Positions 2,300 to 17,736 of a stretch of DNA of 64,000 nucleotides are shown here, piece by piece. Each line of letters starts with the position of its first letter. Positions within the stretch are counted from its first letter, which is position 1. The translations under genes were made by a program, and so were the position numbers. Location: positions 5,650 through 69,649 of the IMG/VR virus record IMGVR_UViG_3300033067_000884. One strand, given 5' to 3'. This DNA is from a virus (taxonomy: Duplodnaviria > Caudoviricetes). Under the pieces are notes generated by a model. It made no database searches, had not been told where the DNA came from, and saw nothing but the letters and a program-made list of their open reading frames with translations.

Positions 2300-2385
2300 T
2301 GGTGGGCTAGATGGGATTCGAACCCATATGACATTGCTGTCAGCGGTTTTTAAGACCGCCGTGTATGCCGTTCCACCACTAGCCC
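2300..2385 (-). tRNA. trnL: tRNA-Leu (anticodon UAA) with encoded CCA
   Basis: GGGCTAG/CTAGCCC acceptor stem plus ACCA; D-loop AGTGGTGGAACGGCATACAC; anticodon arm GCGGT-CTTAAAA-ACCGC; long variable arm; T-loop GGTTCGAATCC. Confidence 0.95.
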
Positions 2386-2963
2386 TTATAATACATTGCT
2401 ACATACGCAGATGGCCCCAGCGGTATCTTCGAATATAACGCATCCGAAGATATCTGGTCATATAACTGATACGCCCTGATTGCATTGCTTCGATCCATTA
2501 TTGGATGACTATCATACCAATGTGTTGTAGACACGACACTCGATCCCTCTAATAGGTCAGTCGGCGTTGTATCGAAATCAAAATGCTTCGGACTGGATAG
2601 GATGATCCGAGTGAACAAAACAGACCACCATAGCGCCCGGTATACATGAGCAACTGGGCCGCTAACGGTGATATCCAACGTATAGCGACTGAGTACCTGA
2701 TCTTTAACACTCTCGACAACAAACACAGCTTCGCCGGGTATCCACTTTGTTAGATATGCTTGGAGATTGGCAGCGTATTCTTCACTAACAGAAACAGCAA
2801 AACGAAGGTATAATGTAAATGGTGCCTTTGGGTCATTATAGATGGCCCGGCGCTCCGCATCTGCGTATATATACGCGCCCATGTTTGATGCAGCTACTTC
2901 CCGACAAGAAAACGAACCATACATCTTTTGCGTATCCAACTTCATTTTGAATTGTCTAGGCAT
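2379..2963 (-). CDS. hypothetical protein, probable paralog of 12075-12902
   Basis: 194 aa; shares a (S/Y)CR(E/D)V motif and an HVxxA-aromatic-S-x4-R helix with 12075-12902. Confidence 0.7.
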   Translation of the reverse strand: MPRQFKMKLDTQKMYGSFSCREVAASNMGAYIYADAERRAIYNDPKAPFTLYLRFAVSVSEEYAANLQAYLTKWIPGEAVFVVESVKDQVLSRYTLDITVSGPVAHVYRALWWSVLFTRIILSSPKHFDFDTTPTDLLEGSSVVSTTHWYDSHPIMDRSNAIRAYQLYDQISSDALYSKIPLGPSAYVAMYYKG

Positions 2964-3543
2964 CTTCTACTGCTCCAACTAATACTCGTGGCCATTGCCC
3001 TAGTGCAGCAAATGTATAATAATCGTACCGCACAGCAAAGGGCATGATTGTTTTAAGCCACGCGTTCTTCTCTTCCACACTCCGCATTATAGTCATATTC
3101 CACAATCTGTCAATCCCAAGCCAGATCAATGAGTCTAACTTCCCATCTTGACACGTAATGATTGACCCCGTATAATCGCCGCTAAGTAAATACTGGGTGA
3201 CATATAGCATCGCGGAATCGGGCGACAACGTATTGTCCGCAATACACTCGTTATATACGTCAATGTACTGATTGCGATCAGTATGGTCAATGAGCGTACG
3301 CACGCCGGTCTGGGTTATACTGCATTCTGCCATAAAATCCTCGTAGAAGTCGGTCTGCTCACTCAGCGTATAGTCCCGCCGACGCGTAGCCACATACGAT
3401 AACATAGCGGCGCGGATGATTGGGAAGTATGATGGGTTCGCCAAGTGCGAGAGTGAGTGGATTGTTGCATCCGACAGCGTGCGCGTTGTAGCCTGGATTT
3501 GAGCATATGTTAGAATCGCCTGTGCAACCATTATTGCCCCCAA
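2956..3543 (-). CDS. hypothetical protein
   Basis: 195-aa ORF overlapping both neighbours, as in coupled phage genes. Confidence 0.7.
   Translation of the reverse strand: MGAIMVAQAILTYAQIQATTRTLSDATIHSLSHLANPSYFPIIRAAMLSYVATRRRDYTLSEQTDFYEDFMAECSITQTGVRTLIDHTDRNQYIDVYNECIADNTLSPDSAMLYVTQYLLSGDYTGSIITCQDGKLDSLIWLGIDRLWNMTIMRSVEEKNAWLKTIMPFAVRYDYYTFAALGQWPRVLVGAVEDA
3148..3176 (+). promoter_or_regulatory. perfect-consensus sigma70 promoter, antisense to the surrounding genes
   Basis: TTGACA cgtaatgattgaccccg TATAAT, 17-bp spacer. Confidence 0.55.
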
Positions 3544-3953
3544 TTACTCAAATCCAGCTTTGTATACGTCAACGAGTAGTCCCGGTAGAACATCCCTTCT
3601 AGCCGATATTCTTTCTGTAGCGTCTGAGGATGCCGATGTGCCATGTAGTTATAGAGACCGGTGACGTTATCAAAGACGAAGCAATCCTCCCAGTCTTTGG
3701 ACACATAGACATATTTACGCCATGCATAATCCGGCCCGCTTGACGCTGCGGTCATTGACCCCGCCACAACAAGGAACGCGCCGATGTACTCCTGTGTTGC
3801 TGTGTCATGCAATTGCGTAATAATCACAACCCGGCCTAATGCAGCAATGCGACCCTCATCAACCAGTTCCTTTACAAACTGGGTATAATTCGTCACATCA
3901 GTGGGGTCAAGGATTGTGATATCCTGCTCTGTTTCTTGTTTCTTGCGCGCCAT
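3531..3953 (-). CDS. hypothetical protein
   Basis: Start moved to MARKK, TAATG-coupled to the upstream gene. Confidence 0.7.
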   Translation of the reverse strand: MARKKQETEQDITILDPTDVTNYTQFVKELVDEGRIAALGRVVIITQLHDTATQEYIGAFLVVAGSMTAASSGPDYAWRKYVYVSKDWEDCFVFDNVTGLYNYMAHRHPQTLQKEYRLEGMFYRDYSLTYTKLDLSNWGQ

Positions 3954-4246
3954 TATGCCCTCTGTATATTCCGAAGATACTCTCCGTTGAGTAACAGTAC
4001 ATCTACCCAATCATCTGGGCCCACTACGCGTTCAAGATATTCACAGACGCGCCCAAGAGACATTGGTGTTTGCTCCACCTCTATCTGCCCGTTGAGCGCA
4101 TCTGCTGCGATAACTGTACGACTAGTATAACACTGCTGGACAACCTCTCGCACCTTGTACCATGTATTGAAGTAAAAGAACTGCGTAGCAGTACAGACAT
4201 AGATGCTATTGGGAAGGAGCGTTCTCGTAGATGGAGATATTCGCAT
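3953..4246 (-). CDS. hypothetical protein
   Basis: 97-aa ORF; exact start uncertain. Confidence 0.55.
   Translation of the reverse strand: MRISPSTRTLLPNSIYVCTATQFFYFNTWYKVREVVQQCYTSRTVIAADALNGQIEVEQTPMSLGRVCEYLERVVGPDDWVDVLLLNGEYLRNIQRA
4124..4145 (-). promoter_or_regulatory. GGTWGTCC promoter copy 4 (intragenic)
   Basis: GGTTGTCC AGCAGTGT TATACT. Confidence 0.75.
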
Positions 4247-4538
4247 ATGTGCCTATATCATCCGCCGGAATGACGTAGTAGCGTGCAGTGAGCGGAGCCT
4301 GATCCTTCCGCTTCTGGTCATAATCGGCGTATGTTGTATCACCATTGACCAGAACAAACGCAGGTTCAACTGGCGGCTCAAACAAAACCCGGATGCCGAC
4401 AAGCTGATTTGTATCGGTACGCACGATGACCATCACGGCTTCGAGAATGGGCAGATGCTTGGCTATCTGCAACGCAGCGCGGGTGCCATTATACACCGCC
4501 ATATCGATGAACGGCTTGAACTCGTTAGGGAATTCCAT
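4206..4538 (-). CDS. hypothetical protein
   Basis: 110-aa ORF with SD GAGGAAG. Confidence 0.65.
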   Translation of the reverse strand: MEFPNEFKPFIDMAVYNGTRAALQIAKHLPILEAVMVIVRTDTNQLVGIRVLFEPPVEPAFVLVNGDTTYADYDQKRKDQAPLTARYYVIPADDIGTYANISIYENAPSQ

Positions 4539-4721
4539 TTACTTCCTCTCCACAAACAGCGGCAACACCAATAGGATCAGTCCAACAATCAGCGAAAGGA
4601 TGCTGGCGATGTTCAGCGCAATATTCGTAGTACGATACCTTTGTATATAGAGATAGCATACTGCACTGATTGTAAGGAACGTAGCTCCCGCAGCAACGTA
4701 CAACGCAGGTTCCATGAACAC
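4539..4721 (-). CDS. small membrane protein (2 TM)
   Basis: Two hydrophobic segments; SD AAGGGG; GTG start. Confidence 0.65.
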   Translation of the reverse strand: MFMEPALYVAAGATFLTISAVCYLYIQRYRTTNIALNIASILSLIVGLILLVLPLFVERK

Positions 4722-4727
4722 ACCCCC

Positions 4728-5201
4728 TTAATAAAGGTAGAGATACAGCCCCACTTTTGGTAATCTATCAATATCACGCCAATCGCTCTCTCCGACATAT
4801 TGCCATTTATCTACATCCGACGATACTTCAATCGTATTGTATGCCTTTGGCATTCCTTGAGAATCTACCTCAACATGAACCCACAAGCCGCCCTGGTCAA
4901 CTGAACGATAGCTAGCAGAATCCCCGATAGTTCGGCGGCGTTGTAGAGGAGTACGTGGACTCTCCATATAAACAGCCTTTGTGGTAGACGTAAACATGCT
5001 GGGTGTCGTACTCTCCTGCATATAGACCGGCGTACCAGGATCAAGGCGCTCAGCGGCTTCCCCACGACGAACGCGCATTTGTTCCTCAATACGCTCCATC
5101 TGCTCGGCCCGTAGACGACTGGCTTCTACTGCCATTCGGGCGGCTTCAAGTTCTTTAGCCATATCCACAGACTTATTATCACTATATTTTGCGCTTGCCA
5201 T
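4728..5201 (-). CDS. hypothetical protein with N-terminal coiled coil
   Basis: Start moved to MASAKY (SD GGGAG); ELEAARMAVEASRLRAEQMERIEEQMR coiled coil. Confidence 0.65.
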   Translation of the reverse strand: MASAKYSDNKSVDMAKELEAARMAVEASRLRAEQMERIEEQMRVRRGEAAERLDPGTPVYMQESTTPSMFTSTTKAVYMESPRTPLQRRRTIGDSASYRSVDQGGLWVHVEVDSQGMPKAYNTIEVSSDVDKWQYVGESDWRDIDRLPKVGLYLYLY

Positions 5202-5394
5202 TTTTAATCTTCTCTCCCTTAGGTATGCGTATTTCGAAAGTCCCTGTCTCATTGTCAATCTTCCAAACTAACATCTTATTTCCGTCGGTTATCCCTTTTG
5301 CTAGCTGAATCTCTCTAAACGCCTGCCCGATGCCAATAAGAGTGTCACGGGCACGTACCAGCTCAGTGACGTGCCCTTCGATTGTTATGCACAT
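5182..5394 (-). CDS. hypothetical protein
   Basis: Start moved to MCITIEG, immediately after the stop of 5396-5998. Confidence 0.55.
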   Translation of the reverse strand: MCITIEGHVTELVRARDTLIGIGQAFREIQLAKGITDGNKMLVWKIDNETGTFEIRIPKGEKIKNGKRKI

Positions 5395-5395
5395 A

Positions 5396-5998
5396 TTACC
5401 TACGCTGCTGCTGCGCCGAAGCCTTACGCCCGGCGAAGAACGCATTCGTAACCCAGTCCCATGCAATTGATAACGCGATCAGGAATACCCACCAGCCCAG
5501 TGTAGCTGCCGTTAGCGTCCGAATGAATGTAGATACCGTCTCGTATACGCCCGGAGCTGCCCCGAACTGAACACAGAACAGCCAGTAGATACCCACGAAG
5601 TTAATGATTGACTCGATCACGGCTCCAATACGCGCAGCGGTAACATTGTGCCGGAACTGGAAGATCGCAATGCTTAGCCCACCCTGCACGATCAACGCGG
5701 CGACCAGCACAATCATGCCCTCGGTGCTAGATACGATCTGCGGGAGACACGCAACGATCTGCCCACGCTCCCCTAGACACGCTGGCGGAATCTTCATGAA
5801 AATCAGCATTAGCACAATCGCGGTCAGTAACGCTGATAGCACCCAGAAGATTGCACCGTAGATCAGCATCCCAGAAGGGCCTTGCGCTCTGCTCTGCGGT
5901 CTACGCTGGCTATCGCCACCACCACCTCCACCGCGAGGATTGCTACCGCCCTTGTTCTGTTCTGCCCCCTTGTCCTTGTTGTCAGTCTCACCCGCCAT
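5396..5998 (-). CDS. multi-pass membrane protein with Gly/Gln-rich N-terminal tail
   Basis: About 4 hydrophobic helices after GGSNPRGGGGGGDSQRRPQ; SD GAGGTG. Confidence 0.8.
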   Translation of the reverse strand: MAGETDNKDKGAEQNKGGSNPRGGGGGGDSQRRPQSRAQGPSGMLIYGAIFWVLSALLTAIVLMLIFMKIPPACLGERGQIVACLPQIVSSTEGMIVLVAALIVQGGLSIAIFQFRHNVTAARIGAVIESIINFVGIYWLFCVQFGAAPGVYETVSTFIRTLTAATLGWWVFLIALSIAWDWVTNAFFAGRKASAQQQRR

Positions 5999-6010
5999 GA
6001 AAGCACCTCG

Positions 6011-6811
6011 CTATAGTTTAATTAGTTGATCGGTTGTCTCGCTTTGGTGTATATACATTCCCTCGTACGAAGGCGATAGCGCCTGGGGATTGATCGCCTG
6101 CGTAACCAACACCGATGTCCCGGCGCGTACGGTCACCATCTGAAACGCTTTGATCTCAGTAATACGCCCGAACTTGTGCATCCGCCCCCAATAGGTCAGT
6201 GCCCAATCTTTCACAGACAACAACACTGTCGGGGACGTATTGAACAGAAACCCGTTATCATCGATGGATACATAATGCAGCTCCCTATTACCCCGCAGGA
6301 GCGTTACATGCCCATCAAGCTCAAGCGCAAATGCCCACTGGCTATCCGCGCCGAACTGAGCTGTCCATGCGTTCACTAGCTCGGCAGTAATGTCCCCACC
6401 ACGCTCATTCAGCAACGCCACCAGCAACTTGAACGCCTGGTAACTATCTACCTTCGGCTCATTCCCTTGGGCTGCTGGCATGTCCTTGATAAAGCCGTTA
6501 TGGGCTGCCATCAACACGCGCCCATCATCTAGCCGAAAGCGGAACGGATGCGATGCATGTGGCGAAATCTCGGTATTACGCGATGCAGCGCGCACATGCC
6601 CAATCCAGAACCGATCATTCGCCAAGCCTGTGAGCCATCCTGACCCCACATGAAGATAGGGAGAATGTGTCTTAGAGACTACTAGGCCATCGGTGACACC
6701 CACGCCGTCGTGCTGTCCATCAGCGTTACTTGCCAGTAATGCCCGGTCAAAGAATAGTCGCCGCATTGACGGGTCAATACGTACGCAGGTATCTACCGTG
6801 ATTCGACACAT
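6011..6811 (-). CDS. class II (Ntn) glutamine amidotransferase / gamma-glutamyl hydrolase
   Basis: N-terminal MCRI (Cys nucleophile), GHVRAAS, HPF, HNG, DS motifs. Confidence 0.85.
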   Translation of the reverse strand: MCRITVDTCVRIDPSMRRLFFDRALLASNADGQHDGVGVTDGLVVSKTHSPYLHVGSGWLTGLANDRFWIGHVRAASRNTEISPHASHPFRFRLDDGRVLMAAHNGFIKDMPAAQGNEPKVDSYQAFKLLVALLNERGGDITAELVNAWTAQFGADSQWAFALELDGHVTLLRGNRELHYVSIDDNGFLFNTSPTVLLSVKDWALTYWGRMHKFGRITEIKAFQMVTVRAGTSVLVTQAINPQALSPSYEGMYIHQSETTDQLIKL

Positions 6812-7206
6812 TATATCTCTCCTACTGATTGTACGATTGATGCACCCCAGTCAGCGTTCGCTTCGCTGAATACACGCTGGGCCTCTGCTTCTAATCCGGC
6901 TGCTACGAACATAACGCCGCAGTTTGTCTCCACACTGATATCCGTCGGCTTGCCTGTTAGCACACAACTAGATGTGATCTTGTACGTATTCTGTGGCCCG
7001 GCATATCGACACTTCCCGCAGATAAGCAGCATATCCACGCTGGTGACTTCGGTACCCACAGCAATCGTCTGGGTCGCTTTGAGCGGACTGATCGCAACGA
7101 GCTTATTGGTATCGGCGTCAACCTCAACAATGCCCTCTGCGATAAGAACCGGGCCGCGAATACCCAGTTCGGTTAAGGACGCGCTGCACTTTGGACACTG
7201 GATCAT
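6811..7206 (-). CDS. zinc-ribbon hypothetical protein
   Basis: CPKC and CGKC pairs; start moved to MIQCPKC. Confidence 0.7.
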   Translation of the reverse strand: MIQCPKCSASLTELGIRGPVLIAEGIVEVDADTNKLVAISPLKATQTIAVGTEVTSVDMLLICGKCRYAGPQNTYKITSSCVLTGKPTDISVETNCGVMFVAAGLEAEAQRVFSEANADWGASIVQSVGEI

Positions 7207-7874
7207 GTTGTACGACCCTTCGGCGTATAGCCACATACAGTACACGGTACTTGACGCGGCTTGGGTGAATTACACACAAAACACTTCCCGGCAGCCTCTA
7301 AGCTGGCCCGCTTCCGATCAGCACTCGTTGTCGGATTCTGTAGCACATCCTCAACAACTTGCTGGCGTACCGATACAGTAGCGACACCGGTGATCTTCGG
7401 TATACGCCCCTTCTGCTCATCATAGTCCGCCAGCATCGAGCGGAAATCTGCCCGACTGATGATCATGCACGACATGTTCATATGGTACAGATTATAGATG
7501 CTGTTGATGATATGCTCCCGCTCAACACGTACCCATCTACCCGCACCCTCGTTCTGGTAAAACTTACCATACGTGCTAACAAGTTGATTGATACGCGGGT
7601 CAAGCATAAACGGCGCAGATGAACTCTGGACAATATAATCCTGCGCCGCAGCTCGGTCATTCTCGATCAGCTTACACAACAGAATGCGCCCCTGCACCCT
7701 CTCAGACGTAACCCGTGAGCCATTACGCTCGGACAATGCCAGGTACAGACGAACAGCCGCGATCTTAAACCCCGGAGAGTTCGTCGGAGCTGGGTATAGC
7801 CGATTTGACATACGCGCCGAGGATATCACGCTATTGATAAAGTCCTGATCTTTGCGCGTCAAAGGAATTGTCAT
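7203..7874 (-). CDS. hypothetical protein with C-terminal zinc ribbon
   Basis: CFVC...CTVC at the C-terminus; start MTIP overlaps the upstream TGA. Confidence 0.7.
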   Translation of the reverse strand: MTIPLTRKDQDFINSVISSARMSNRLYPAPTNSPGFKIAAVRLYLALSERNGSRVTSERVQGRILLCKLIENDRAAAQDYIVQSSSAPFMLDPRINQLVSTYGKFYQNEGAGRWVRVEREHIINSIYNLYHMNMSCMIISRADFRSMLADYDEQKGRIPKITGVATVSVRQQVVEDVLQNPTTSADRKRASLEAAGKCFVCNSPKPRQVPCTVCGYTPKGRTT

Positions 7875-8878
7875 TTCCACTCCCAATCTAAGTCAAACGA
7901 CTCCGGCAGCACATACGACTGTAGTGCCTGAATAGTTGATGCTATTGTAGCATAGCCGGACAACCTATCACCCACGCGTGCATTCAATTCCCGGCACTCA
8001 TCCATGTTATGCTGATTAATCGCCGGAACAAGTCGGTCAAGCACCTCGCTATATGACCCAAAGATACTCATGAGATACTTCACCGTCGCCGACTGACCCT
8101 CAGCTTCGACAACATCCATGATATGCCCGCACACCGCACTGGCAGCAGTAAACATCAGCCGCGCCACTTGCTCGGTTTGCACCAGTGCCTGAGCGGGCAG
8201 CGTGCGATACTCAAATGTCCACAGGTCAGTGTTCACCCGACACATACCGGCGCTGCCATATAACGCCATTCGCTGTAATGCCTGCGGGCTTGTGCAGAGG
8301 AAGCCCGATGCCGTGCCCAGCACACTATCCATCGCAGCGATGGTGTACGTCAGCAGGGCGTTATCCGAGATGATCTTCTCGCCCACTTGCACATGAATAT
8401 GCCCGCCGCTTGTGCGAAATGGATACTGCTTCGGGTCAGGTCGATCAGGAATCTCAACGCTGTCGTAGACACAGAAGTCCGGCGCACAGCCCAAGATTTG
8501 CAGCGAACACTTCTTCCCAAACTCCGGCGGCAGACGATCAATGTACGCCATATCCGCCGGGAAGTGTGGTTCAACAGTGAGCTTGACACCACGCGCTGCA
8601 AGGAGATTGCGCGTAGCTTGCAAGTTACCGCGAAGGTTCGTCACCATCGTCTCCACGTCGCTGGTCGGGGTCAGCGTAAACTCTACCGCCATACCATCAG
8701 GCGTTAGTGTGCCATGCGGCAGCACAATATCCGGATGATCGACGTTCTGAACGCCCATGGCATAGTACGCCGGGATAGGCAGGCCCAGCAATCGATCTTC
8801 GAGACCGTACTGCCGAAGAATGCTATCCGACTCTGCGACGGCTACCAGCTCCGGGTCACTGCCAAGTGTAGGATACAT
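7871..8878 (-). CDS. phiEco32-like COOH-NH2 ligase type 2
   Basis: LGSDPE, DGMAVEF, GCAPD, RTSGGHIH, YGSAG..R and EYRTL motifs of the PF14395-type family. Confidence 0.9.
   Translation of the reverse strand: MYPTLGSDPELVAVAESDSILRQYGLEDRLLGLPIPAYYAMGVQNVDHPDIVLPHGTLTPDGMAVEFTLTPTSDVETMVTNLRGNLQATRNLLAARGVKLTVEPHFPADMAYIDRLPPEFGKKCSLQILGCAPDFCVYDSVEIPDRPDPKQYPFRTSGGHIHVQVGEKIISDNALLTYTIAAMDSVLGTASGFLCTSPQALQRMALYGSAGMCRVNTDLWTFEYRTLPAQALVQTEQVARLMFTAASAVCGHIMDVVEAEGQSATVKYLMSIFGSYSEVLDRLVPAINQHNMDECRELNARVGDRLSGYATIASTIQALQSYVLPESFDLDWEWK
7944..7965 (-). promoter_or_regulatory. GGTWGTCC promoter copy 5 (intragenic)
   Basis: GGTTGTCC GGCTATGC TACAAT, about 70 nt upstream of the next start. 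Confidence 0.75.
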
Positions 8879-10383
8879 TAGTGTAGTCCTCCTGATAGAA
8901 TCATCTCAGTTGAGATTGAAATCGGTTCTTCCTTCTTTGTTGCGTACAACAATACACTCTCGCCCAGTTTATCCATATCAAAGTGTGAGCGTACAACAGC
9001 CGGGGGCAACTGCCCGATCAAACCCAACATATACGGCACCCACTTTGTCATGACATAGTTCGGATTATTGATGTTACCTTCCGGGTCAAGCATTCGAGTG
9101 AACTTAGGATCGAGAAAAAACATACCCACCGAGAATAATGCGTCATGCGCCGATGCGTCATAGCCCGCCTTAACATGGTGGTTCCACCAGTTGATCATAT
9201 AGGTGCTTACTGGCGTAAACGGCTTGATGTATTTTGTCTCATCCTCAGCACTCGTCGGGCACAACATCTGTGAGAGAATATCAAACTCCTTTAACGTCAC
9301 GCGGCACAGAAACAACGCCGGGCTTGGGCGCTCATACGCGTCCTCATACCCCAGGATTGACGCTGCCCAATACGCCGACAACTCACTGCGTAATGGAGAT
9401 AGCTTCCCCGCAAGATACTGCCATAGCAACCTACGTCGCTTCATTGTCAGTTCTTCGGTATTCGGCTCATTCACCCCCAGTACGACCGGCTTTGTCGGGC
9501 GCGGTGTTGTCACGGGCGGCGCAATAACGAAGCGTTGGTTGCTCTCTCCAAGATCATCGCTTGCGTTTCTTACGCTTACGCTTGTACTGGGGGTTTGGGT
9601 TTTTGGGGCTGTATTGCTCCATACCACGGTAGATGTCTGCGCCTGAACGTGTTTTGGGTCGATGTCCGATACGACCACCTCCCCAGCACCTAGCGGGAAC
9701 CGCAATAGCTTGTTATCAGCAATCGGATAAGGCACGCGATCATTCTCTATGCCATGCACCGCTGCTAGATACGCTTTTGCAAACGCCAGCGCCTTGATAT
9801 TGGTATGAACAAGATACCCATTCCCCACTTCCAACGCCGCCAGTGTACGTGTCTTGCCCCGCAACGCATAAACATGATCGCGCCAGTGCAACATCACCGC
9901 GTAGTGACTGTCATCTTGAAACTGCCCTAGCCACTCGTTGATTAGGTCAGCGTCAATATCATCGGTATGTCGCTCCGCCATCATCGTAGCCAGGATAGAC
10001 AGCGCCCGATACGAATCAGTGTTCGGTGTACCCTGGTTATACACATATTTCGTACCACTGAAATAGCCATTATGCACAGCAATCAGGGTCTCTCCGTTCA
10101 CATCGAAGTGATACGGGTGATTCTCAATACGCGTACGTCCTGTACCGCCACTTGCCTTGCGCAAATGACTGATGATGAATTTGCGCTGGTTTACCCGTCG
10201 TAACCAGATGGGTGTATCCTCGAAATACCAGTCTGACCCGCGCCAGGTGTTCTCGGTGTCCGTCACACCCCAGCCATCTTTCTGCCCAAGCTCATCATGA
10301 CTGGTGCGCAACATCAGTTCATGAACGAGTTGTGCTTTCGGTATGCGGACATCCGTGAATGTCGCAAGGCATAGTCGGCACAT
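8878..10383 (-). CDS. class II glutamine amidotransferase with long C-terminal extension
   Basis: MCRL, SHLRKAS, HPY, HNG, TDS; T/P-rich linker then about 190 aa of unknown domain. Confidence 0.85.
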   Translation of the reverse strand: MCRLCLATFTDVRIPKAQLVHELMLRTSHDELGQKDGWGVTDTENTWRGSDWYFEDTPIWLRRVNQRKFIISHLRKASGGTGRTRIENHPYHFDVNGETLIAVHNGYFSGTKYVYNQGTPNTDSYRALSILATMMAERHTDDIDADLINEWLGQFQDDSHYAVMLHWRDHVYALRGKTRTLAALEVGNGYLVHTNIKALAFAKAYLAAVHGIENDRVPYPIADNKLLRFPLGAGEVVVSDIDPKHVQAQTSTVVWSNTAPKTQTPSTSVSVRNASDDLGESNQRFVIAPPVTTPRPTKPVVLGVNEPNTEELTMKRRRLLWQYLAGKLSPLRSELSAYWAASILGYEDAYERPSPALFLCRVTLKEFDILSQMLCPTSAEDETKYIKPFTPVSTYMINWWNHHVKAGYDASAHDALFSVGMFFLDPKFTRMLDPEGNINNPNYVMTKWVPYMLGLIGQLPPAVVRSHFDMDKLGESVLLYATKKEEPISISTEMILSGGLH

Positions 10384-10386
10384 GCA

Positions 10387-11457
10387 TTAACCCCCTCGTA
10401 TAAGTAACTTGAACGCTTCGGATCGGTCATCGCGTTGATCCCTATTTGAGATCGTCATCACGCCGGTTGATGGAAGATTCAGCACCGGCTGACTTGGATA
10501 ATGGGACAGCAAGTTCTGTTGCGCACAGCCCTTCTGCCAGTTCTCTCCCCAGAGTTGACTCACATCCATGTCAAGTAGGTTATTCACCCAGTCAACATCA
10601 ACCTTGGGCGCACTGCCCAGCACAAAATCAAAGTCCGGCAACTGCCGCTTCGCAGCAAGCTGATGGACATGATACACGAAGTCTACCAATATATCGAAAT
10701 ACTGATACAGCCCGTCAAATACGCGCCACTCAATTGTGCCGGTGCGTAGAATTGACGCAATGTTCAGTCCGTGCAAACGATGCGGCATGTAATGCTCTAG
10801 CCCACTCGACCAATACTGATCGAGTCTGCCCCACGCCGCAACGAACTCGCTGGCACTGGTAGCCGCCACAAGATCGGGCCAACGAACCAGCGGCCCTACT
10901 TTTGACCCCCACTGCACGCCAATCGGCGCCGAGAGAGGACGAGCAAACTTGTGATCATTCGGGCTGCCTTGATATGACCGGCAACCACGATGCAATGCTC
11001 CGCCACACGCCACGCGATAGATGATCGCTTCTAGGGCCTTGAACCAGATGCACAGATGCTGGACATCCTTCCATGACTCATTGTTTGCATCGACATGCAC
11101 ATGGATGCTTGTGCGCGGGTTCTGTGGCGTTGTGCTAAAGAAATACGCCAGCTTCTGGGAGATCGGTCTGAACTCCTCAAACGTATACGGCTCGGTGATA
11201 ATCTCCAAACCATACGGCTGCTGCTGCTTCATGCCCGCGCTCAATATAGGCGCGCCGCGCTCTGTCTCTTGCGGGATGACTGGCAGTGTCCCGGCCAGAT
11301 ATGTATGATCACGCACGCTACCATCATTATGAAGATGGAAACGCAACCAGGGCTTGAGACCATCGGTTGCGTTTGTGCCTAGTCGAAAGAATTCCAGCTC
11401 ACTGCCTACAGTGGTCTGCATGTTAATCGGCATAGTTGCCACCTTGTAGAAAGACAC
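10387..11457 (-). CDS. putative amidoligase (glutamine synthetase-like fold)
   Basis: TVGSELE, DGSV, EIIT, TSIHVHV, GLN and GTIEWR motifs of the PF12224-type family. Confidence 0.88.
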   Translation of the reverse strand: MSFYKVATMPINMQTTVGSELEFFRLGTNATDGLKPWLRFHLHNDGSVRDHTYLAGTLPVIPQETERGAPILSAGMKQQQPYGLEIITEPYTFEEFRPISQKLAYFFSTTPQNPRTSIHVHVDANNESWKDVQHLCIWFKALEAIIYRVACGGALHRGCRSYQGSPNDHKFARPLSAPIGVQWGSKVGPLVRWPDLVAATSASEFVAAWGRLDQYWSSGLEHYMPHRLHGLNIASILRTGTIEWRVFDGLYQYFDILVDFVYHVHQLAAKRQLPDFDFVLGSAPKVDVDWVNNLLDMDVSQLWGENWQKGCAQQNLLSHYPSQPVLNLPSTGVMTISNRDQRDDRSEAFKLLIRGG

Positions 11458-12091
11458 GTTCCATATACGTCAGGAACTGATTATGCCCTAGCACCTCAGG
11501 ATGCCACTGCACCGTCAACGCGTCACTATATAGCACCGCTTCTACCGTCGTATCCTTCGCCCGTGCTAATACAACGCCGCCCTCCGGCATCTGCTTAATC
11601 GCTTGGTGGTGCATAGAGTTCACGTTCACGATATGCTGTGATTGTAACACACGCGGACTACCGTTCGGCGTCGATCTCATCAAGTCCACGAAGCCGCTGG
11701 ACACAGCGTCATCAGTCATATAGATCGGATGCTGCCACGAATGCCCGGCCCCGACTTGGCGACTGATATCCTGATACAGTGTGCCTTTCCGCTTTGCTGC
11801 GATGAACTGATGCCCACGGCAGATACCCAGCATCGGCACATGCAGTTCCAACGCAATGTCATATAGACGGCTTTCCCACTTATCACGCTGCTCAGAGAAG
11901 CTAGAGTATAGGTTCTCCTCGCCGTACATCGCCGGGTTGATGTCGATGCCGCCTTCGAATAGGATAATACAATCCCCACCCGACATCAGCGTGCGCAGCT
12001 CATCATCCGACGCATTACGCCGAGGGAATACATTGGCAATGCCCTCAGCATGAGAAAAGAACATGCCACCGCAGCTATTGATTACCCGCAC
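11423..12091 (-). CDS. peptidase C26 / class I glutamine amidotransferase (PuuD-like gamma-glutamyl hydrolase)
   Basis: EGGIDINP, GICRG nucleophile, NSMHHQ, QWHPE; GTG start after SD AAGGAG. Confidence 0.9.
   Translation of the reverse strand: MRVINSCGGMFFSHAEGIANVFPRRNASDDELRTLMSGGDCIILFEGGIDINPAMYGEENLYSSFSEQRDKWESRLYDIALELHVPMLGICRGHQFIAAKRKGTLYQDISRQVGAGHSWQHPIYMTDDAVSSGFVDLMRSTPNGSPRVLQSQHIVNVNSMHHQAIKQMPEGGVVLARAKDTTVEAVLYSDALTVQWHPEVLGHNQFLTYMERVFLQGGNYAD
11641..11662 (-). promoter_or_regulatory. GGTWGTCC promoter copy 6 (intragenic)
   Basis: GGTAGTCC GCGTGTGT TACAAT. Confidence 0.75.
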
Positions 12092-12902
12092 TTGGCGCTC
12101 CTTGATATTCTGCAAACACCGGCCGTAACGCATCGATGGTTCGATACCGGCTAATACGCGATTCTAGCTCTTCCTGGGTATCGATCCAGTTTATCCAACT
12201 CACACGCCGGAACACAGACAGCGGCCCGACTTTATGCTGCAACATCTTGCTGGCAATAGAGTCGGTGTTGTCGCCAATACGCAGTGCTTCCCACATTGCC
12301 AGATGCTCAGTATCTCCCCGGCGCTTGACCAGCGTATTAGCATCTTTCCAATCATAGCGCTTCTGCGTGGGCGATAGATAGCCGCCCGGACCTTCGGTCA
12401 TTGCAAGGCGCTGTAGGTAGATCGAGAAGTAGAACGCGTACGGGACATGATAATCGCCGCGCATCTTGATCGTGGGCATATCTCGCCCTGTAAGCTCATG
12501 CGGGTACACGCCCTGCGAGAACTCAATCGTCGGGAACTTGCGGACGAGCTTGCTAATGATCAGCGGAACACTATGATCGCGCATCCACTCATACGTCGCA
12601 AACGCACTGCCCACTGGGATGCGAGGTAGTGTAATCGCCTGAACGGACTCGTTCTCGAACCGCAGGTCATTCAGGCGATTATTGATCCAGACATGCCATC
12701 CCCATTGAACAGCCGCACCATAGATTTCGGCAGTAGGGGTCGGCAGACGATCAATCACGGCGTTATAGTCCGTGGCAAGCAACCGCATCATCCCGCCATA
12801 GGACACATCGCGGCAGTAGTTACTAGTCATCGGCACACGACGCTCAGGGATATCCGCGCCGGTAACTTTCCAACTCGAATAAAATGACGCTGGCACATTC
12901 AC
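12075..12902 (-). CDS. hypothetical protein of the amide-ligase cluster
   Basis: 275 aa between the ATP-grasp and C26 genes; SD AAGGAG; YCRDV motif. Confidence 0.75.
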   Translation of the reverse strand: MNVPASFYSSWKVTGADIPERRVPMTSNYCRDVSYGGMMRLLATDYNAVIDRLPTPTAEIYGAAVQWGWHVWINNRLNDLRFENESVQAITLPRIPVGSAFATYEWMRDHSVPLIISKLVRKFPTIEFSQGVYPHELTGRDMPTIKMRGDYHVPYAFYFSIYLQRLAMTEGPGGYLSPTQKRYDWKDANTLVKRRGDTEHLAMWEALRIGDNTDSIASKMLQHKVGPLSVFRRVSWINWIDTQEELESRISRYRTIDALRPVFAEYQGAPSAGNQ

Positions 12903-12905
12903 TCC

Positions 12906-13730
12906 TTACTGTACAAATGTACGAAAATATTCCCTATACGCCTCATACGTTGAGGGCATATCATGTGGTGTTGACCCATCATCATCGCGCCGACTAATTC
13001 CCGGCGCTGAATTGATCTCGAAGATGACCCATTCGCCATTACGCGTCAGGGCCATATCTAGCGCGCCAAAATCGAGTCCACACGCGTTGGTCGCGGCAAT
13101 CGAAATCTCACGCGCCCTCTGCGCAAGCGCATCACCAACAAGCGTTGAGATGGAGCGGGCACTGAATCGCGCTCCATTATCGTAGTTACGTACAAGTACG
13201 CGGCTACCTGTCGGAATGTATTTAATCTGCTCACATATGACCCGGCCCCCGGCGACATGAATGCGAATTTCGTGTGCTTTCGACACAACCTGTGAATAGA
13301 AATCAAATCGCTGATCGGGCCGCGGTAAGACACCGCGATCCATAACCTCAATTCCAGCGCCACCTGTAAGTCCGTCTTGACGTGCAAGATATTTCCCTCG
13401 CTGATAAAATGGCCGCCGATCATCGGGCAGCACAATTGTCGGGTCTGTCACAACACGCGGTATCGGCAGATTCGCAGCGCGCAACGCATCAAAGGTACGC
13501 ATCTTCCGTACGCTTCTGCTAATATCTGCATTTAGTATACGCGATGTGGACAACCGCATACCCGGTGTTCGGCTTAACATCTGCGGCCCACAACCCCAAT
13601 TAACATTCACAGTCATTGTCCCACGTCGCGCCCGATTACGCGTGGGGAAATCAGGGAACATCACCGACTGGCGTAACTCCCGCGCAATCGAACGAGCGAA
13701 CGTGGCGCGGGTGTGATAGATGTAAAACAT
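12906..13730 (-). CDS. ATP-grasp (RimK-like) ligase
   Basis: K(x)R motif with GGAGI, EIRIHV, DFGALD, EINSAPG. Confidence 0.88.
   Translation of the reverse strand: MFYIYHTRATFARSIARELRQSVMFPDFPTRNRARRGTMTVNVNWGCGPQMLSRTPGMRLSTSRILNADISRSVRKMRTFDALRAANLPIPRVVTDPTIVLPDDRRPFYQRGKYLARQDGLTGGAGIEVMDRGVLPRPDQRFDFYSQVVSKAHEIRIHVAGGRVICEQIKYIPTGSRVLVRNYDNGARFSARSISTLVGDALAQRAREISIAATNACGLDFGALDMALTRNGEWVIFEINSAPGISRRDDDGSTPHDMPSTYEAYREYFRTFVQ
13534..13555 (-). promoter_or_regulatory. GGTWGTCC promoter copy 7 (intragenic)
   Basis: GGTTGTCC ACATCGCG TATACT. Confidence 0.7.
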
Positions 13731-13796
13731 TATAACGCCTCTGTGGATACTTCTTCCACGGTAATCCTCAACACAACGATCTCGCAGTTGCGTATC

Positions 13797-13973
13797 TTAT
13801 ACACCGGTCTCCTTCCGACATACAGTACAGCGCCGCTTTGTGCCCTTACCACATAGATTATGCAGCCGCCGATTGGTGCCGTACTGCTTGTCCTGGAACG
13901 CGTGAACACATGTACATGACGCCACGACTGTTCCATACTTCGCTGTAGACTTGCTTGCTTTCCCCTCAGACAT
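13797..13973 (-). CDS. small Cys/His-rich (zinc-binding) protein
   Basis: CTCVH...HNLC...CTVC; start moved to MSEGK. Confidence 0.65.
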   Translation of the reverse strand: MSEGKASKSTAKYGTVVASCTCVHAFQDKQYGTNRRLHNLCGKGTKRRCTVCRKETGV

Positions 13974-14003
13974 TGTGTACTCGCTTTCTATAATTGTGCA
14001 TAG

Positions 14004-14025
14004 AGTATAACACACAAGGACTACC
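14004..14025 (-). promoter_or_regulatory. GGTWGTCC promoter copy 8
   Basis: GGTAGTCC TTGTGTGT TATACT. Confidence 0.8.
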
Positions 14026-14401
14026 GCCTGCGGTCTATTCTACGTTTCTGAAATGGTTTTGTTCTCTTACGAACTCTTGGAGGTCGTGGCGGTGTTTTCG
14101 GGGGTTCTACCTCAAACACTGATTTCATTTTCCACCACCCTATGCTGCTGCACTCAACGTCAGATGGGCCGGATATAAGCCAGTGCATCACCTCATCCTC
14201 AGTCAGAATACGCAACCCACAATGCCACACACTACAATAACCATCCATGCCACCATGTACATATGATTGTATACGTACCGTACCATAGTCCGGCTCATTC
14301 GGCACGTCGTATTTCTCTGTCACGATCCCCGGATGATAGTTACAATCTTCAACATAATCCCCGATTTGTATCTGGTCTAATTCATTGATAGGTGTAGGCA
14401 T
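14021..14401 (-). CDS. hypothetical protein with basic C-terminus
   Basis: Start moved to MPTPIN (SD GAGGA); the upstream ATG lies in a terminator. Confidence 0.7.
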   Translation of the reverse strand: MPTPINELDQIQIGDYVEDCNYHPGIVTEKYDVPNEPDYGTVRIQSYVHGGMDGYCSVWHCGLRILTEDEVMHWLISGPSDVECSSIGWWKMKSVFEVEPPKTPPRPPRVRKRTKPFQKRRIDRRR

Positions 14402-14414
14402 AGTATCCTCAAAC

Positions 14415-14452
14415 AAAAAAAAAGACCCCCGATACATTACTGCATCAGGGGC
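14415..14452 (-). terminator. intrinsic terminator
   Basis: CCCCTGATGCA-GTAA-TGTATCGGGGG stem followed by TC and T9. Confidence 0.85.
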
Positions 14453-14919
14453 GATTGTTCGCGCACATGTGGTAGAGCAAATTCCAGATTTGCTGACTGA
14501 AGGGTACGTATCCTTTCAATCAGCGATAAATCAAACCTCTCGAAGTCATAACTAACCGCGCCGGTTTCTTCGTTCTGAGTAAACTTGAGGCACCAGCGGT
14601 TTGTTACGCCGCGATAGCTCAAATCATCGGTTATCTGTACAACGACAAAGCGGCTATCAGCAATACGAACGCGCACATGTCCCTGCGGGACGTTCATATA
14701 GAGGCACTCATCCTCACCGACATCGTACTTATCGGACAAGCCGCCCAGGTCACCGTAGATAACATACTCGCCGGTCTCAACATTGGTCAAGCGAACACGC
14801 CCCTGAGCAGTGGGCGTATCTACCCAGTATAATGTATTCAGCTCGACGTATGTGCGGACAAGACTGAGATACACAAATGGGTTACGCACATACGCAAACA
14901 CTGGATGATCGTGTGACAT
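14437..14919 (-). CDS. hypothetical protein
   Basis: Start moved to MSHDHP, downstream of promoter copy 9. Confidence 0.7.
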   Translation of the reverse strand: MSHDHPVFAYVRNPFVYLSLVRTYVELNTLYWVDTPTAQGRVRLTNVETGEYVIYGDLGGLSDKYDVGEDECLYMNVPQGHVRVRIADSRFVVVQITDDLSYRGVTNRWCLKFTQNEETGAVSYDFERFDLSLIERIRTLQSANLEFALPHVREQSPLMQ

Positions 14920-14950
14920 ACTGTACTCACTTCTATAAGTATATGTACAC

Positions 14951-14972
14951 ACTATAACATAACTGGACTACC
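14951..14972 (-). promoter_or_regulatory. GGTWGTCC promoter copy 9
   Basis: GGTAGTCC AGTTATGT TATAGT. Confidence 0.75.
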
Positions 14973-15503
14973 GACTCCTGCTAAAGCTGCAATCTTTGCA
15001 GCATGCTCCCGTAGCTGCTCCATTGTCCCATCATTCGTAAATCGGTAATCAAATTCATAGTTATCCAGAGATGTTTCACTGACATGGTTTGGGTCTCTAC
15101 CGCCCGGCCCTGTTCTACTGCCGTCAATACGCACCATAATGCCGCCATATTGTTTGATCATATTAGCTTCATTAGGAAAGCGCACATCGCTAATTGACCA
15201 ATTCTCCACGCCGTCATAATCAGCAAACAACGCCAGCACCCAAGCGTCGGTATGTAGTCCATTGCGTACTGCATCTGTACCTAGACGCTGCTGTAGTTCT
15301 CCTAACGTCATCCCCCAATCAACGAGCATCTCATCCTTCATTACGCGATTATACATCATATTCTCAGGTAAACCTGTAAGTATAGCGGCTACTTTCTTTA
15401 ACTTACCGGCGAATATCTTCGGTTCAAACGCGTAATGTATATATAGCAAACGGGCAAGTTCAGTCTTGCCCGCTCCAATCTTACCGCTGATGCCTATGAT
15501 CAT
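14952..15503 (-). CDS. deoxynucleoside monophosphate kinase
   Basis: IIGISGKIGAGKT P-loop, LQQRLGTD..R, ISDVRFPNE, HVSE. Confidence 0.9.
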   Translation of the reverse strand: MIIGISGKIGAGKTELARLLYIHYAFEPKIFAGKLKKVAAILTGLPENMMYNRVMKDEMLVDWGMTLGELQQRLGTDAVRNGLHTDAWVLALFADYDGVENWSISDVRFPNEANMIKQYGGIMVRIDGSRTGPGGRDPNHVSETSLDNYEFDYRFTNDGTMEQLREHAAKIAALAGVGSPVML

Positions 15504-16030
15504 GTCAGTTCCTTTAATCTCTCCCAAAATAGCTGCCGGGCTGCTTCTGGCTGTAAACACGCAATCGTGACCTTCTCCCTCAAATCCGGCGCACCCTCAA
15601 GCTGTGTCCAATCCCCTATGTCACTCGGCATAAGTCTATCACGCTCTGGTAATAACATTGCCCCATCCACCTGTTTTACATCCAAAGGCATCGTTGCGGG
15701 TAATCCAAATTTGGCAGCGATACACTTCATCAGCGTATCCTCTATTTCATAATATCCAACAAGTAGCGGCTTTATAGGTCTCGGTACATCACATAGATAC
15801 GCTTCTGTTGCATCATGGAGTAAACCATATAACGCGTTCTCTGGCTTTACGAACCTACTGACATAGACGCTATGTTCGGCTACACTATAGAAGTCGGATG
15901 TATGACCATTATATCGACATTGCTGAGCCAGACTCCATACAATATCTTCGATACAAATCGTATCCGGGTCAGGGTCTAGCGGGTTTACTAATACGCCCGA
16001 ATGTGTAAGTATATGTCCTTTAATTATCAT
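15500..16030 (-). CDS. HD-domain 5'-deoxynucleotidase (YfbR/YfdR/DatZ-like)
   Basis: CRYNGH...YSVAEHS...LLHDATEAY..D. Confidence 0.88.
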   Translation of the reverse strand: MIIKGHILTHSGVLVNPLDPDPDTICIEDIVWSLAQQCRYNGHTSDFYSVAEHSVYVSRFVKPENALYGLLHDATEAYLCDVPRPIKPLLVGYYEIEDTLMKCIAAKFGLPATMPLDVKQVDGAMLLPERDRLMPSDIGDWTQLEGAPDLREKVTIACLQPEAARQLFWERLKELT

Positions 16031-16356
16031 TCTGTATCAGCTTCCGTTTCACTGATGTCCCACTTCGCTACCGCCCGACTAATCTTATACGTACCCGGCT
16101 GTGTTGGTCTACTCTCCGGCGCAGCTTCTACTGCGCTATCTTCCCACACCTCAAGCCCTTGTGGGCGAGTCTCAAGATAGTACCGCGTATATCGAACAAC
16201 GATGGCCCCGACGAGAATGATAACCACGACAATAAGAAGATAGTCTAATCCTGTCATTTCTATATCCATCCCATTCTTATTAATACTAATAATGTCACAA
16301 CGCAACCTAGTAAGAAACCAATAATGGCTATGATCATGACTCACCCATATTTGCAT
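16027..16356 (-). CDS. single-pass membrane protein
   Basis: LLIVVVIILVGAIVV helix; true start probably internal. Confidence 0.6.
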   Translation of the reverse strand: MQIWVSHDHSHYWFLTRLRCDIISINKNGMDIEMTGLDYLLIVVVIILVGAIVVRYTRYYLETRPQGLEVWEDSAVEAAPESRPTQPGTYKISRAVAKWDISETEADTE

Positions 16357-16720
16357 ACGTTAAAGACGCCAGATGGTCAATAGCTTCGCGCAGCAGAGAA
16401 AACACCATAGTCGCCTCTACCCTACACATACCCATATATACCGACTTAGCTTCCGAGGATTCATCTACGAAGATAATGTATTTACCCAACGCATATGCAT
16501 ACCCGATTTCATTCGACAATCCGATACCACTAGGATTATCAAACTCCATATACCCAAATACAACATCTGCATCACGTATAGCTGCTAAATCCCACTCAGT
16601 ATATTCCTTTTCAGTTATAAGTCCATGTAATGACGGGTCGCTATACGTATGCGTGGGGACAACGCGTTTAACAACTTCTCTCCACCCATTACGCATACCG
16701 CCTGCTAAATACACTTTCAT
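16334..16720 (-). CDS. nucleoside 2-deoxyribosyltransferase-like protein
   Basis: KVYLAG, WDLAAIRDAD, SGIG..EIGYAYALGK. Confidence 0.85.
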   Translation of the reverse strand: MKVYLAGGMRNGWREVVKRVVPTHTYSDPSLHGLITEKEYTEWDLAAIRDADVVFGYMEFDNPSGIGLSNEIGYAYALGKYIIFVDESSEAKSVYMGMCRVEATMVFSLLREAIDHLASLTYANMGES

Positions 16721-17736
16721 CGCATTACGTGCTTCCAGGGCTTCGCCCCATAATGAATGAATTCTGCTGATACTCTTGTGGTCATCTCATCCACAACGCC
16801 TACATCTACTAACCAGCCGCCGATATCTGCGTGGAGCCGCTTCTTTCTCATGAACGGTGTCTGCCTCTGAAACGTCCCGGTCTGGATGATCCGTACGCCT
16901 CGATAGTTAGGTAAATACTCAGCCTTGTGATAGTGACCCACAAGCAAGATAAAGGGTCTCTCCTCATCATCCCACCCATCTACAATCTTTTGACTGGTAT
17001 GGCTGAGTGCGTATGAACTACCTCCACCGGCATGCATTGTACGCACGATTAATTCTTGCTTATCCGGCAATACCATACGCGTATCGGCTTCCATATAGCC
17101 AAGATACGTTAAATCATTCCGGCCCTCTCTGCGTGACATATCCTGCAAGTGGGCACCGATTTCAATGCCGAAGTTCTGTGTATACCAGCCCTCATGGTCA
17201 TCGCCATCGATAAAGCGCGTTTCAATGCCATCGCGTTGTGGGTAGTTACGAATGAAATAACGGAGCTGCGCGTCCATACCCCGTGTATTAATGTCATTGG
17301 CGTTAAAGCGCGCCTCTCCATCTACCCAGTTACCCGTGTGATATACAACACTCACGCCCTCTTGTGCATATACATCATAGAGGCGGTGCAGTGCTTCTAA
17401 GTCCTCGTAGTTACTGCACAAGTGAGTATCCCCCACAGCGCCGAAGCGAATGCGCGGCACCTTTACTTCTCTTGGGGAATGTGGCGTTAGTGTCAATGGC
17501 GGAATAGTTACAGGAGCAGTTACCGCCTCGACTGATACGCCAAAATGCTCCTGTCTATCTAGTGCTTGCTTTGACCGGGCAACATAGCGGCGGATAGCGC
17601 CGCGTAACTGGTCAGTAGAAATGGGTTCACCTAATTCAGTGCTGAGTTGCTGCGCCATCTCTGTGCGGTTCTTACCAGTCTCGGTCATTTCTGCAACAAT
17701 ACGGGCACACAATTCATCTGTCCAAATCAAAATCAT
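16717..17736 (-). CDS. calcineurin-like metallophosphoesterase with N-terminal HTH-like region
   Basis: GDTH, TGNWVDG, GDDHE, HAGGG and GHYH motifs. Confidence 0.85.
   Translation of the reverse strand: MILIWTDELCARIVAEMTETGKNRTEMAQQLSTELGEPISTDQLRGAIRRYVARSKQALDRQEHFGVSVEAVTAPVTIPPLTLTPHSPREVKVPRIRFGAVGDTHLCSNYEDLEALHRLYDVYAQEGVSVVYHTGNWVDGEARFNANDINTRGMDAQLRYFIRNYPQRDGIETRFIDGDDHEGWYTQNFGIEIGAHLQDMSRREGRNDLTYLGYMEADTRMVLPDKQELIVRTMHAGGGSSYALSHTSQKIVDGWDDEERPFILLVGHYHKAEYLPNYRGVRIIQTGTFQRQTPFMRKKRLHADIGGWLVDVGVVDEMTTRVSAEFIHYGAKPWKHVMR

Follow-up and report, generated by a model that had tools for sequence, protein, structure and literature searches.

Our analysis identifies a nine-gene cassette of an uncultured phage as a clade-specific re-assortment of the known phage amidoligase cassette, and not as a simple expansion of it. 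The genes, which we call A to I, are translationally coupled and occupy positions 6011-13730 on the minus strand of a 64,000-nucleotide stretch of DNA (hereafter the window; positions 5,650 to 69,649 of the Caudoviricetes record IMGVR_UViG_3300033067_000884 in IMG/VR), and the ends of this interval coincide exactly with the start of an ATP-grasp ligase gene and the end of a gene for an N-terminal nucleophile (Ntn) amidohydrolase. Relative to the cassettes of cultured phages, the clade has gained a second Ntn paralogue (I), a protein without a sequence family (B) and two zinc-ribbon proteins (G and H), and it is without the cyclotransferase and the helper proteins of the canonical versions. We favor a model in which the products of these genes build up and then trim, in the cytoplasm of the infected cell, a compound with amide bonds of gamma-glutamyl type, and we put the probability of this reading at roughly 0.6. 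The phage amidoligase cassette was predicted by Iyer, Abhiman, Burroughs and Aravind in 2009 (Mol Biosyst 5:1636, as represented in a paper that cites it, PMC10580990). Its function is still given as that prediction in the papers that mention it (PMC10580990, PMC3890496), and the literature that we searched holds no experimental product for it.

The original prediction for this locus had named six enzymes (an ATP-grasp ligase, an amidoligase, a COOH-NH2 ligase, a C26 class I enzyme and two class II Ntn enzymes), placed them in one coupled operon and treated them as a single multi-enzyme system. All six genes are present on the minus strand, and their junctions bear out the coupling: TAATG overlaps join E to F and H to I, ATGA overlaps join F to G and G to H, the B/C and C/D pairs overlap by 11-17 nt, and the other junctions are gaps of 3-12 nt bearing Shine-Dalgarno sequences. 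Related phages likewise speak for a single system, as six additional phage contigs from metagenomes have the nine-gene core too. In five of these (L004-L008) the order is A-B-C-D-E-(X)-F-G-H-I, where X is an additional gene, followed by a further gene, J, where the contig extends far enough. The cassette proteins are 20-65% identical in amino acid sequence across the five contigs, with B at 20-30%, and the upstream flank, encoding RecA, a PD-(D/E)xK nuclease and a deoxynucleoside monophosphate (dNMP) kinase, is common to them. The sixth contig, L011, is more distant and keeps B through I in order; its variant of the cassette (2675-4266 and 12216-12971 of that contig) has two tandem B paralogues, a 545-residue amidoligase with a C-terminal extension, and an ATP-grasp gene relocated to the far end. 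Because the order is kept in relatives, including most of L011, we regard A-I as one conserved unit, and because J was not detected in L011 its membership is doubtful.

The three proteins A, D and F are, on the strength of their motifs, ATP-dependent carboxylate-amine ligases with intact catalytic residues. A (12906..13730, minus strand) is a predicted RimK-like ATP-grasp ligase of 274 residues that matches phrog_2599 at 2.5e-24 and, weakly, RimK, R2K and Ddl_C; its Lys and its Asp...Glu-x-Asn Mg/ATP motifs are intact in an alignment with relatives, and it is homologous to gp50 of phage CVT22 (1.5e-17) and to ECBP2_0079 of phage ECBP2. D (10387..11433, minus strand) belongs to Amidoligase_2, the carboxylate-amine ligases of glutamine-synthetase fold (PF12224, 28.8 bits against a cut-off of 22). 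Its GxELE, HxHxD and ExR motifs are invariant among relatives, and its hidden Markov model (HMM) matches the ECBP2 amidoligase at 2.5e-4. F (7871..8878, minus strand) is a predicted COOH-NH2 ligase type 2, with a match to phrog_3815 at 4.1e-22 and one to PF14395 at 1.6e-5 whose 24.7 bits fall just below the cut-off of 25; its conserved GxDPE, GGHIH and EYR motifs are equivalent to those of D, and its HMM matches CVT22 gp61 at 2.7e-22. A profile search against PDB sequences returned no solved relative of D or F. The alignments of catalytic residues took in 4-10 relatives for each cassette enzyme, and the invariance of those residues agrees with the earlier claim that the catalytic motifs are whole. 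Two of the related contigs differ around the ATP-grasp gene. In L008 the ATP-grasp open reading frame (ORF; 1086-1787) diverges and stops early at 233 residues, without Glu-x-Asn, which could reflect a frameshift or an assembly error, and in L007 a LAGLIDADG homing-endonuclease gene (6338-6754) is inserted directly upstream of the ATP-grasp gene.

The other three enzymes, C, E and I, are predicted from their sequences to be amidohydrolases with a cysteine nucleophile, and all three have intact catalytic residues. C (11423..12091, minus strand; GTG start with AAGGAG) is a class I enzyme of the Peptidase_C26 family (Pfam, 1.8e-35) whose Cys105-His211-Glu213 triad, within GxCxG and HPE motifs, is invariant in seven sequences. 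Its best named match is PuuD (2.2e-15), at 56.8 bits against an NCBIfam equivalog cut-off of 266; with a score so far below that cut-off, C is expected to work as a C26 hydrolase but not as PuuD itself. E (8878..10383, minus strand) is a 501-residue protein that starts Met-Cys and combines a class II Ntn amidohydrolase domain (approximately residues 1-240), a Pro/Thr-rich linker and, at the C-terminus, a conserved helical domain of about 190 residues. The Ntn domain matches the YafJ-like structure PDB 1te5 at an E value of 0.007. Eleven relatives of E were found at 36-47% identity; tblastn against cultured phages gave no match, and a pattern scan of IMG/VR gave no relative. The C-terminal domain matched no family in a profile search against PDB sequences or in the ESM Atlas (residues 305-501), and bears no likeness to the extensions of canonical Ntn proteins. 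I (6011..6811, minus strand) is a stand-alone class II Ntn amidohydrolase of 266 residues that also starts Met-Cys (GATase_6, 1.1e-5); it and the N-terminal domain of E are paralogues, with 33% identity over about 206 residues (E value 5e-25). The invariant residues are Cys2, Arg75, Asn105-Gly106 and Asp123 in E and Cys2, Arg74, Asn105-Gly106 and Asp122 in I, a set that we take to provide, as in GlmS-type enzymes, the nucleophile, the oxyanion hole and the holder of the alpha-carboxylate and alpha-amino groups of glutamine. By likeness to their nearest relatives, of PuuD type for C and YafJ-like for E, these proteins would be stand-alone enzymes that cleave glutamine or gamma-glutamyl amides.

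Three ligases beside three glutamine-type hydrolases raise the main alternative, namely that the cassette carries out glutamine-dependent amidation, with C, E and I as glutaminase subunits that pass ammonia to A, D and F and so convert carboxylates to carboxamides. C overlaps D and E comes after D in all loci, ECBP2 and PaP3-like phages also encode a long Ntn protein after an amidoligase, the additional conserved domain of E could dock onto a ligase, and E and I keep the full presumed glutamine-binding residue set. However, C resembles the C26 gamma-glutamyl hydrolases that stand alone more than it does subunits coupled to a synthase, and E and I resemble stand-alone Ntn proteins of the YafJ/EgtC type. 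The presence of a cyclotransferase in canonical cassettes also points to gamma-glutamyl bonds, and to our knowledge no ligase of glutamine-synthetase fold uses a glutaminase subunit. We therefore give amidation a modest chance of being correct. Hydrolysis of a gamma-glutamyl bond finds parallels in the PuuA/PuuD and EgtA/EgtC systems, in which a gamma-glutamyl hydrolase of C26 or Ntn type, again a stand-alone enzyme, partners a ligase of glutamine-synthetase or glutamate-cysteine-ligase fold. This analogy of protection followed by deprotection had been drawn before, and it fits what we see: PuuD is the best match of C, and E and I are of the stand-alone YafJ/EgtC type. It does not extend to the pathways themselves, since no polyamine or ergothioneine pathway genes are present and C scores far under the PuuD equivalog cut-off.

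Comparison with cultured phages clarifies what is new in this locus. It had been described as an expanded version of a smaller phage neighborhood, and the second half of that description does not hold: the cassettes of CVT22, ECBP2 and LUZ24/PaP3-like phages have 7-10 genes, several of them for uncharacterised proteins, and include all three ligase types (ATP-grasp, Amidoligase_2 and COOH-NH2 ligase) with a class II Ntn protein and a C26 enzyme or a cyclotransferase. The expansion itself holds in part, in that I, B, G and H are additions, whereas three ligases and an Ntn protein accompanied by C26 or a cyclotransferase were already present in cultured phages. One of the closest likenesses is to the Zobellviridae-type cassettes of CVT22, CW02 and a Vibrio podophage, which also combine an ATP-grasp ligase, Amidoligase_2, COOH-NH2 ligase, a class II Ntn protein and a class I C26-type enzyme among early and replication genes. 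CVT22 encodes direct homologues of A, C and F (E values of 1e-14 to 5e-20), and yet its genes are uncoupled, with numerous small ORFs among them, a single Ntn protein stands where there are two here, and HMM searches found no homologue of B, G or H in this phage. A conserved protein of about 190 residues follows its COOH-NH2 ligase, directly or past small ORFs, and this family is absent from the cassette described here. Homologues of C, 47 in all, come from CVT22-, CW02- and Vibrio-type phages and a few Pseudomonas phages, and none from Escherichia phages.

The phiEco32-like phage ECBP2 and the LUZ24/PaP3-like phages resemble our locus in that genes for three ligase classes and for a long class II Ntn protein are grouped in a single co-directional block that adjoins primase and helicase genes. 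ECBP2 encodes the three ligases, with homologues of A, D and F among them, a 667-residue Ntn protein and a gamma-glutamyl cyclotransferase, and the LUZ24-like phage UFV-P2 has the same enzyme set (PMC3890496). Gene order differs between these phages and our locus, the C-terminal regions of their Ntn proteins are unrelated to that of E, and, unlike the cassette here, they have no detectable C26 enzyme. They differ further in having a cyclotransferase gene and genes for two uncharacterised proteins upstream of their COOH-NH2 ligase (annotated at 282-407 residues). The canonical helper, a protein of roughly 190-220 residues encoded after the COOH-NH2 ligase, forms one family that aligns across ECBP2, PaP3-like phages, Slicky01 and CVT22; comparison with G and H by hhalign gave no relation (probability 0.1), a result from shallow profiles that leave distant homology possible. 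Neither CVT22 nor ECBP2 yielded a counterpart in searches with HMMs of B, G, H, J, X, E and I, and a 41-member HMM of the B family matched nothing in the cassettes of CVT22, ECBP2, PaP3-like phages or Slicky01. The locus thus shares with the canonical cassette a COOH-NH2 ligase type 2, an Amidoligase_2 protein, a RimK-like ATP-grasp ligase and a class II Ntn protein with a (non-homologous) C-terminal extension, and it departs from it in having neither the helper nor the gamma-glutamyl cyclotransferase, the latter being frequent though not universal there. The absence of a cyclotransferase had been claimed from the window, and it extends to the whole 69.6-kb contig, itself a genome fragment, in which PF06094 and PF13772 had no match; no cyclotransferase Pfam match is on record among the genes called in the loci of the relatives.

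Three further proteins within the block, B, G and H, together with a small zinc protein encoded ahead of A and a predicted membrane protein encoded after I, had not figured in the original prediction. B (12075..12896, minus strand; 273 residues) has no sequence family. Its AlphaFold2 model (predicted local distance difference test, pLDDT, 72.6; predicted template modeling score 0.74) gave GshAB, glutamate-cysteine ligase, PafA, Dop, GS-III and YbdK as top VIA-align matches, with Z scores of 5.7-7.7. The carboxylate-amine ligase superfamily accounts for 13 of the top 20 VIA-align matches (Z 4.9-7.7 over approximately 155-205 residues), while Foldseek returned nothing at E ≤ 0.001 from the PDB and viral libraries. 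From this model, B probably has a fold like those of glutamine synthetase, glutamate-cysteine ligase and PafA, although this is not proven. A search of 1.84 billion representatives with the B HMM found only 41 clusters. The residues conserved in this 41-member family are Cys-Arg, Gly, Ala..Trp, Arg, Trp and Gly-Pro, and no conserved acidic or His motif was found, unlike in D and F with their metal- and ATP-binding Glu, His and Arg motifs. Since B is without these acidic and His motifs, it is probably non-catalytic. It adjoins the C26 gene in every locus read, and the ATP-grasp gene is called just upstream of it in six, the second B paralogue taking that place in L011.

G (7203..7874, minus strand; 223 residues) is limited to this clade and carries a C-terminal zinc ribbon, G-K-C-x2-C-x2-PKPR-x3-C-x2-CGY, ahead of a basic C-terminus; no relatives were found outside the clade, and searches of the ESM Atlas, PDB sequences and PADLOC gave no match. 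H (6811..7206, minus strand) is a beta-rich protein of 131 residues that contains two CxxC pairs and in which the motif GPVLIA is invariant; alignment places its true start at Met14, its acidic and aromatic tail appears disordered, and the last residue varies among relatives (I, Y, Y, F, V). The AlphaFold2 model of H (pLDDT 49) was too poor for a structure search. Profile searches of B, G and the C-terminal domain of E against PDB sequences returned only noise, and hhalign found no relationship among B, X, G, F and D, in a comparison of shallow profiles that was underpowered, the known ligases D and F being likewise unlinked.

Small zinc-ribbon proteins encoded beside a RimK-like ligase invite a different interpretation, in which the ligases use a protein carboxylate, on a host protein or on H or G, as the acceptor for amino acids, as in the RimK-S6, LysX-LysW and PafA/Dop-Pup systems. 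A resembles RimK and LysX, the structural matches to B include PafA and Dop (Z 6.6-6.7), G and H are kept in the cassette even in the distant L011, and the tail of H looks flexible. Iyer and co-workers are also described as having proposed peptide modification of proteins for such enzymes. However, H, at 131 residues, has no conserved C-terminal Glu or Gln and ends in variable residues, the C-terminus of G is basic, and B has no catalytic residues. Furthermore, G and H are absent from canonical cassettes and cannot be a general substrate. The zinc-binding pairs of H are about 55 residues apart, and those of LysW lie much closer together. We consider modification of a protein or carrier rather improbable. 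The specific version of this idea, that H and/or G are dedicated carriers or tags on which the three ligases build a chain that C, E or I then releases or edits, with B as an adaptor presenting the carrier to the ATP-grasp enzyme, is a long shot. If it were true, the locus would encode a phage LysW- or Pup-like protein-templated pathway.

How the cassette would work as a builder and trimmer of gamma-glutamyl amides can be sketched from these comparisons. We envision that phage-specific promoters drive its transcription along with that of the replication and nucleotide-salvage genes and that its products act in the host cytoplasm. There, A, D and F would first activate carboxylates in the form of acyl-phosphates and then couple glutamate or another amino acid to an acceptor that provides the amine; as many as three amide bonds would result, of which one or more would be gamma-glutamyl. 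C, E and I would then strip the gamma-glutamyl group or groups, or deamidate, in the manner of PuuD and EgtC, and C and/or I may stand in for the cyclotransferase in the trimming role that it has in canonical cassettes. B would serve as a non-catalytic subunit of ligase fold that partners A and C, and G and H as adaptors or substrates. The most likely product is a small gamma-glutamyl-type peptide or amide. Of the roles put forward in the original prediction, namely envelope modification, an anti-defense metabolite or a protein tag, no one is favored by these results over the others. Because canonical cassettes use a gamma-glutamyl cyclotransferase, the chemistry shared by all these loci is most likely the formation and later removal of gamma-glutamyl amide bonds.

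Several points weigh against this model. Sequence gives no means of telling gamma-glutamyl hydrolysis apart from the delivery of ammonia. Pairs of glutaminase and ligase would also be compatible with the 3:3 ratio of ligases to amidohydrolases, and with the conserved adjacency of C with D and of D with E. The fold match of B is middling, with Z no higher than 7.7 and nothing from Foldseek at the threshold used, and G and H have no assignable fold, the ESM Atlas having offered none for G and the model of H being unusable. Finally, CheckV puts the completeness of the contig at 37%, and a cyclotransferase could sit elsewhere in the genome.

The transcriptional organization of the locus sets the cassette apart from its upstream neighbors. 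A strong intrinsic terminator on the minus strand (14425-14452; a stem of 12 bp and then nine T) marks the end of a gene for a 171-residue protein and separates the nucleotide-salvage genes from the cassette transcription unit, whose promoter lies just downstream (14004..14025, minus strand). This promoter consists of GGTAGTCC, a spacer of 5 nt and TGTTATACT, an extended -10 element, and its motif is also found upstream of the cassette in relatives. In general form the motif is GGTWGTCC-N5-TGnTAYAMT, which occurs 10 times against 1.96 expected, always on the minus strand. The octamer copies lie at 221-228, 1213-1220, 1992-1999, 4138-4145, 7958-7965, 11655-11662, 13548-13555, 14018-14025 and 14965-14972, and a tenth at 24613-24620 has no -10 element. 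Three full copies fall within cassette genes on the same strand, namely in A (13534-13555), in C ahead of D (11641-11662) and in F ahead of G (7944-7965). The motif is present in L004-L008, often at equivalent positions, including the 3' end of F ahead of G (L004, L007 and L008) and the interior of C (L006 and L007), and is not present in L011. Because the same motif stands at matching positions in related contigs, we regard the internal promoters, which had been proposed without this comparison, as real and conserved. A scan with the generic sigma-70 consensus was uninformative (23 sites where 15.3 +/- 3.7 were expected). The window also contains, at 547-948, an ORF with a weak likeness to sigma factors.

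The first gene behind the operon promoter (13797..13973, minus strand) encodes a basic zinc-binding protein of 58 residues (CxC...H...C...CxxC) with homologues in L004 and L007; tblastn with the 61-residue L004 homologue recovered it at 55% identity (E value 1e-16). A 68-residue ORF in another frame (13730-13936) is probably spurious. X, a protein of 242-317 residues without a family, is encoded between E and F in L004 (11521-12384), L005 (11472-12215), L006 (11433-12161) and L007 (11518-12471) and is missing from this window and from L008; the 3' end of its gene bears a promoter copy.

Twelve nucleotides after I lies J (5396..5998, minus strand), whose 200-residue product has a Gly/Arg-rich N-terminus and four hydrophobic segments that we read by eye as transmembrane. 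J is kept in four close relatives, but an HMM did not detect it in L011, which leaves it uncertain whether J belongs with the cassette. In the chemistry of peptidoglycan stem peptides, amide ligases and the amidation of glutamine are widespread, and a membrane protein after I in five of the six close loci would suit a cassette that modifies peptidoglycan precursors and so blocks superinfection or alters lysis. A role of this kind was suggested in 2009 for phiEco32, according to the account in PMC10580990. Apart from the failure to detect J in L011, searches of the genes with Pfam and NCBIfam detected no Mur-ligase, lipid II or export function, a by-eye reading of the enzyme N-termini, made without a predictor, revealed no signal peptide, and the promoter type of the cassette is the same as that of replication genes. 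Modification of the cell envelope is, in our judgment, highly unlikely.

Directly upstream of the cassette lies a nucleotide-salvage module (14952-17736) encoding a dNMP kinase (phrog_139), an HD-type dNMP phosphatase (phrog_318), a nucleoside 2-deoxyribosyltransferase-like protein (PF15891) and a 339-residue metallophosphoesterase-like protein. This proximity could suggest that the ligases decorate a base or a nucleotide precursor, as in DNA hypermodification. The strong terminator and fresh promoter described above nevertheless divide the two units, and the contig encodes no thymidylate-synthase-type hydroxymethylase. Moreover, Pfam, PHROGs and NCBIfam named no base-modification enzyme at 1-32,600 of the window, a search that did not take in the structural half. 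We find hypermodification barely credible.

The cassette also differs in composition from the rest of the window. Its guanine plus cytosine (GC) content is 0.53 (5396-13730) against 0.455 for the remainder, which makes it a compositional island, and GC at third codon positions is 0.50-0.64 in its genes against approximately 0.35-0.45 in replication and structural genes. An excess of 4-7 points in GC is repeated in all five relatives (L004-L008), despite divergence of the proteins to 20-65% identity. The window covers most of a 69.6-kb linear contig whose relatives span 99-112 kb. Nearly all genes from position 1 to about 55 kb lie on the minus strand. Nucleotide searches at near and distant settings matched no cultured phage, and the helicase of the contig reaches an identity of only about 25% with its best phage matches. 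The DNA polymerase is encoded in two ORFs, one for the exonuclease and N-terminal part (22592-23710) and one for the C-terminal polymerase part (21017-21883), with an ORF of 200 codons between them; split DNA polymerases have been reported in phiEco32- and LUZ24-type phages (PMC3517423). A tRNA-Leu gene with anticodon TAA (2300-2385, minus strand) lies among the early genes. A search of 4000-15000 of the window with Rfam found no known RNA family, and PADLOC found no defense-family match.

Since this phage is uncultured, the locus is no easier a test bed than the cultured models. Its value lies in comparison. The question of what the phage amidoligase cassette produces dates from 2009, and homologues of the COOH-NH2 ligase F are carried by at least 217 phage records. 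B, G and H add candidate protein partners for binding or modification to this question. The variant described here separates a core, consisting of the ATP-grasp ligase, two ligases of glutamine-synthetase fold and a long Ntn protein, from parts that are interchangeable, with a C26 enzyme and a second Ntn protein standing where other phages have a cyclotransferase. This pattern supports the idea that gamma-glutamyl trimming is the chemistry common to these cassettes.

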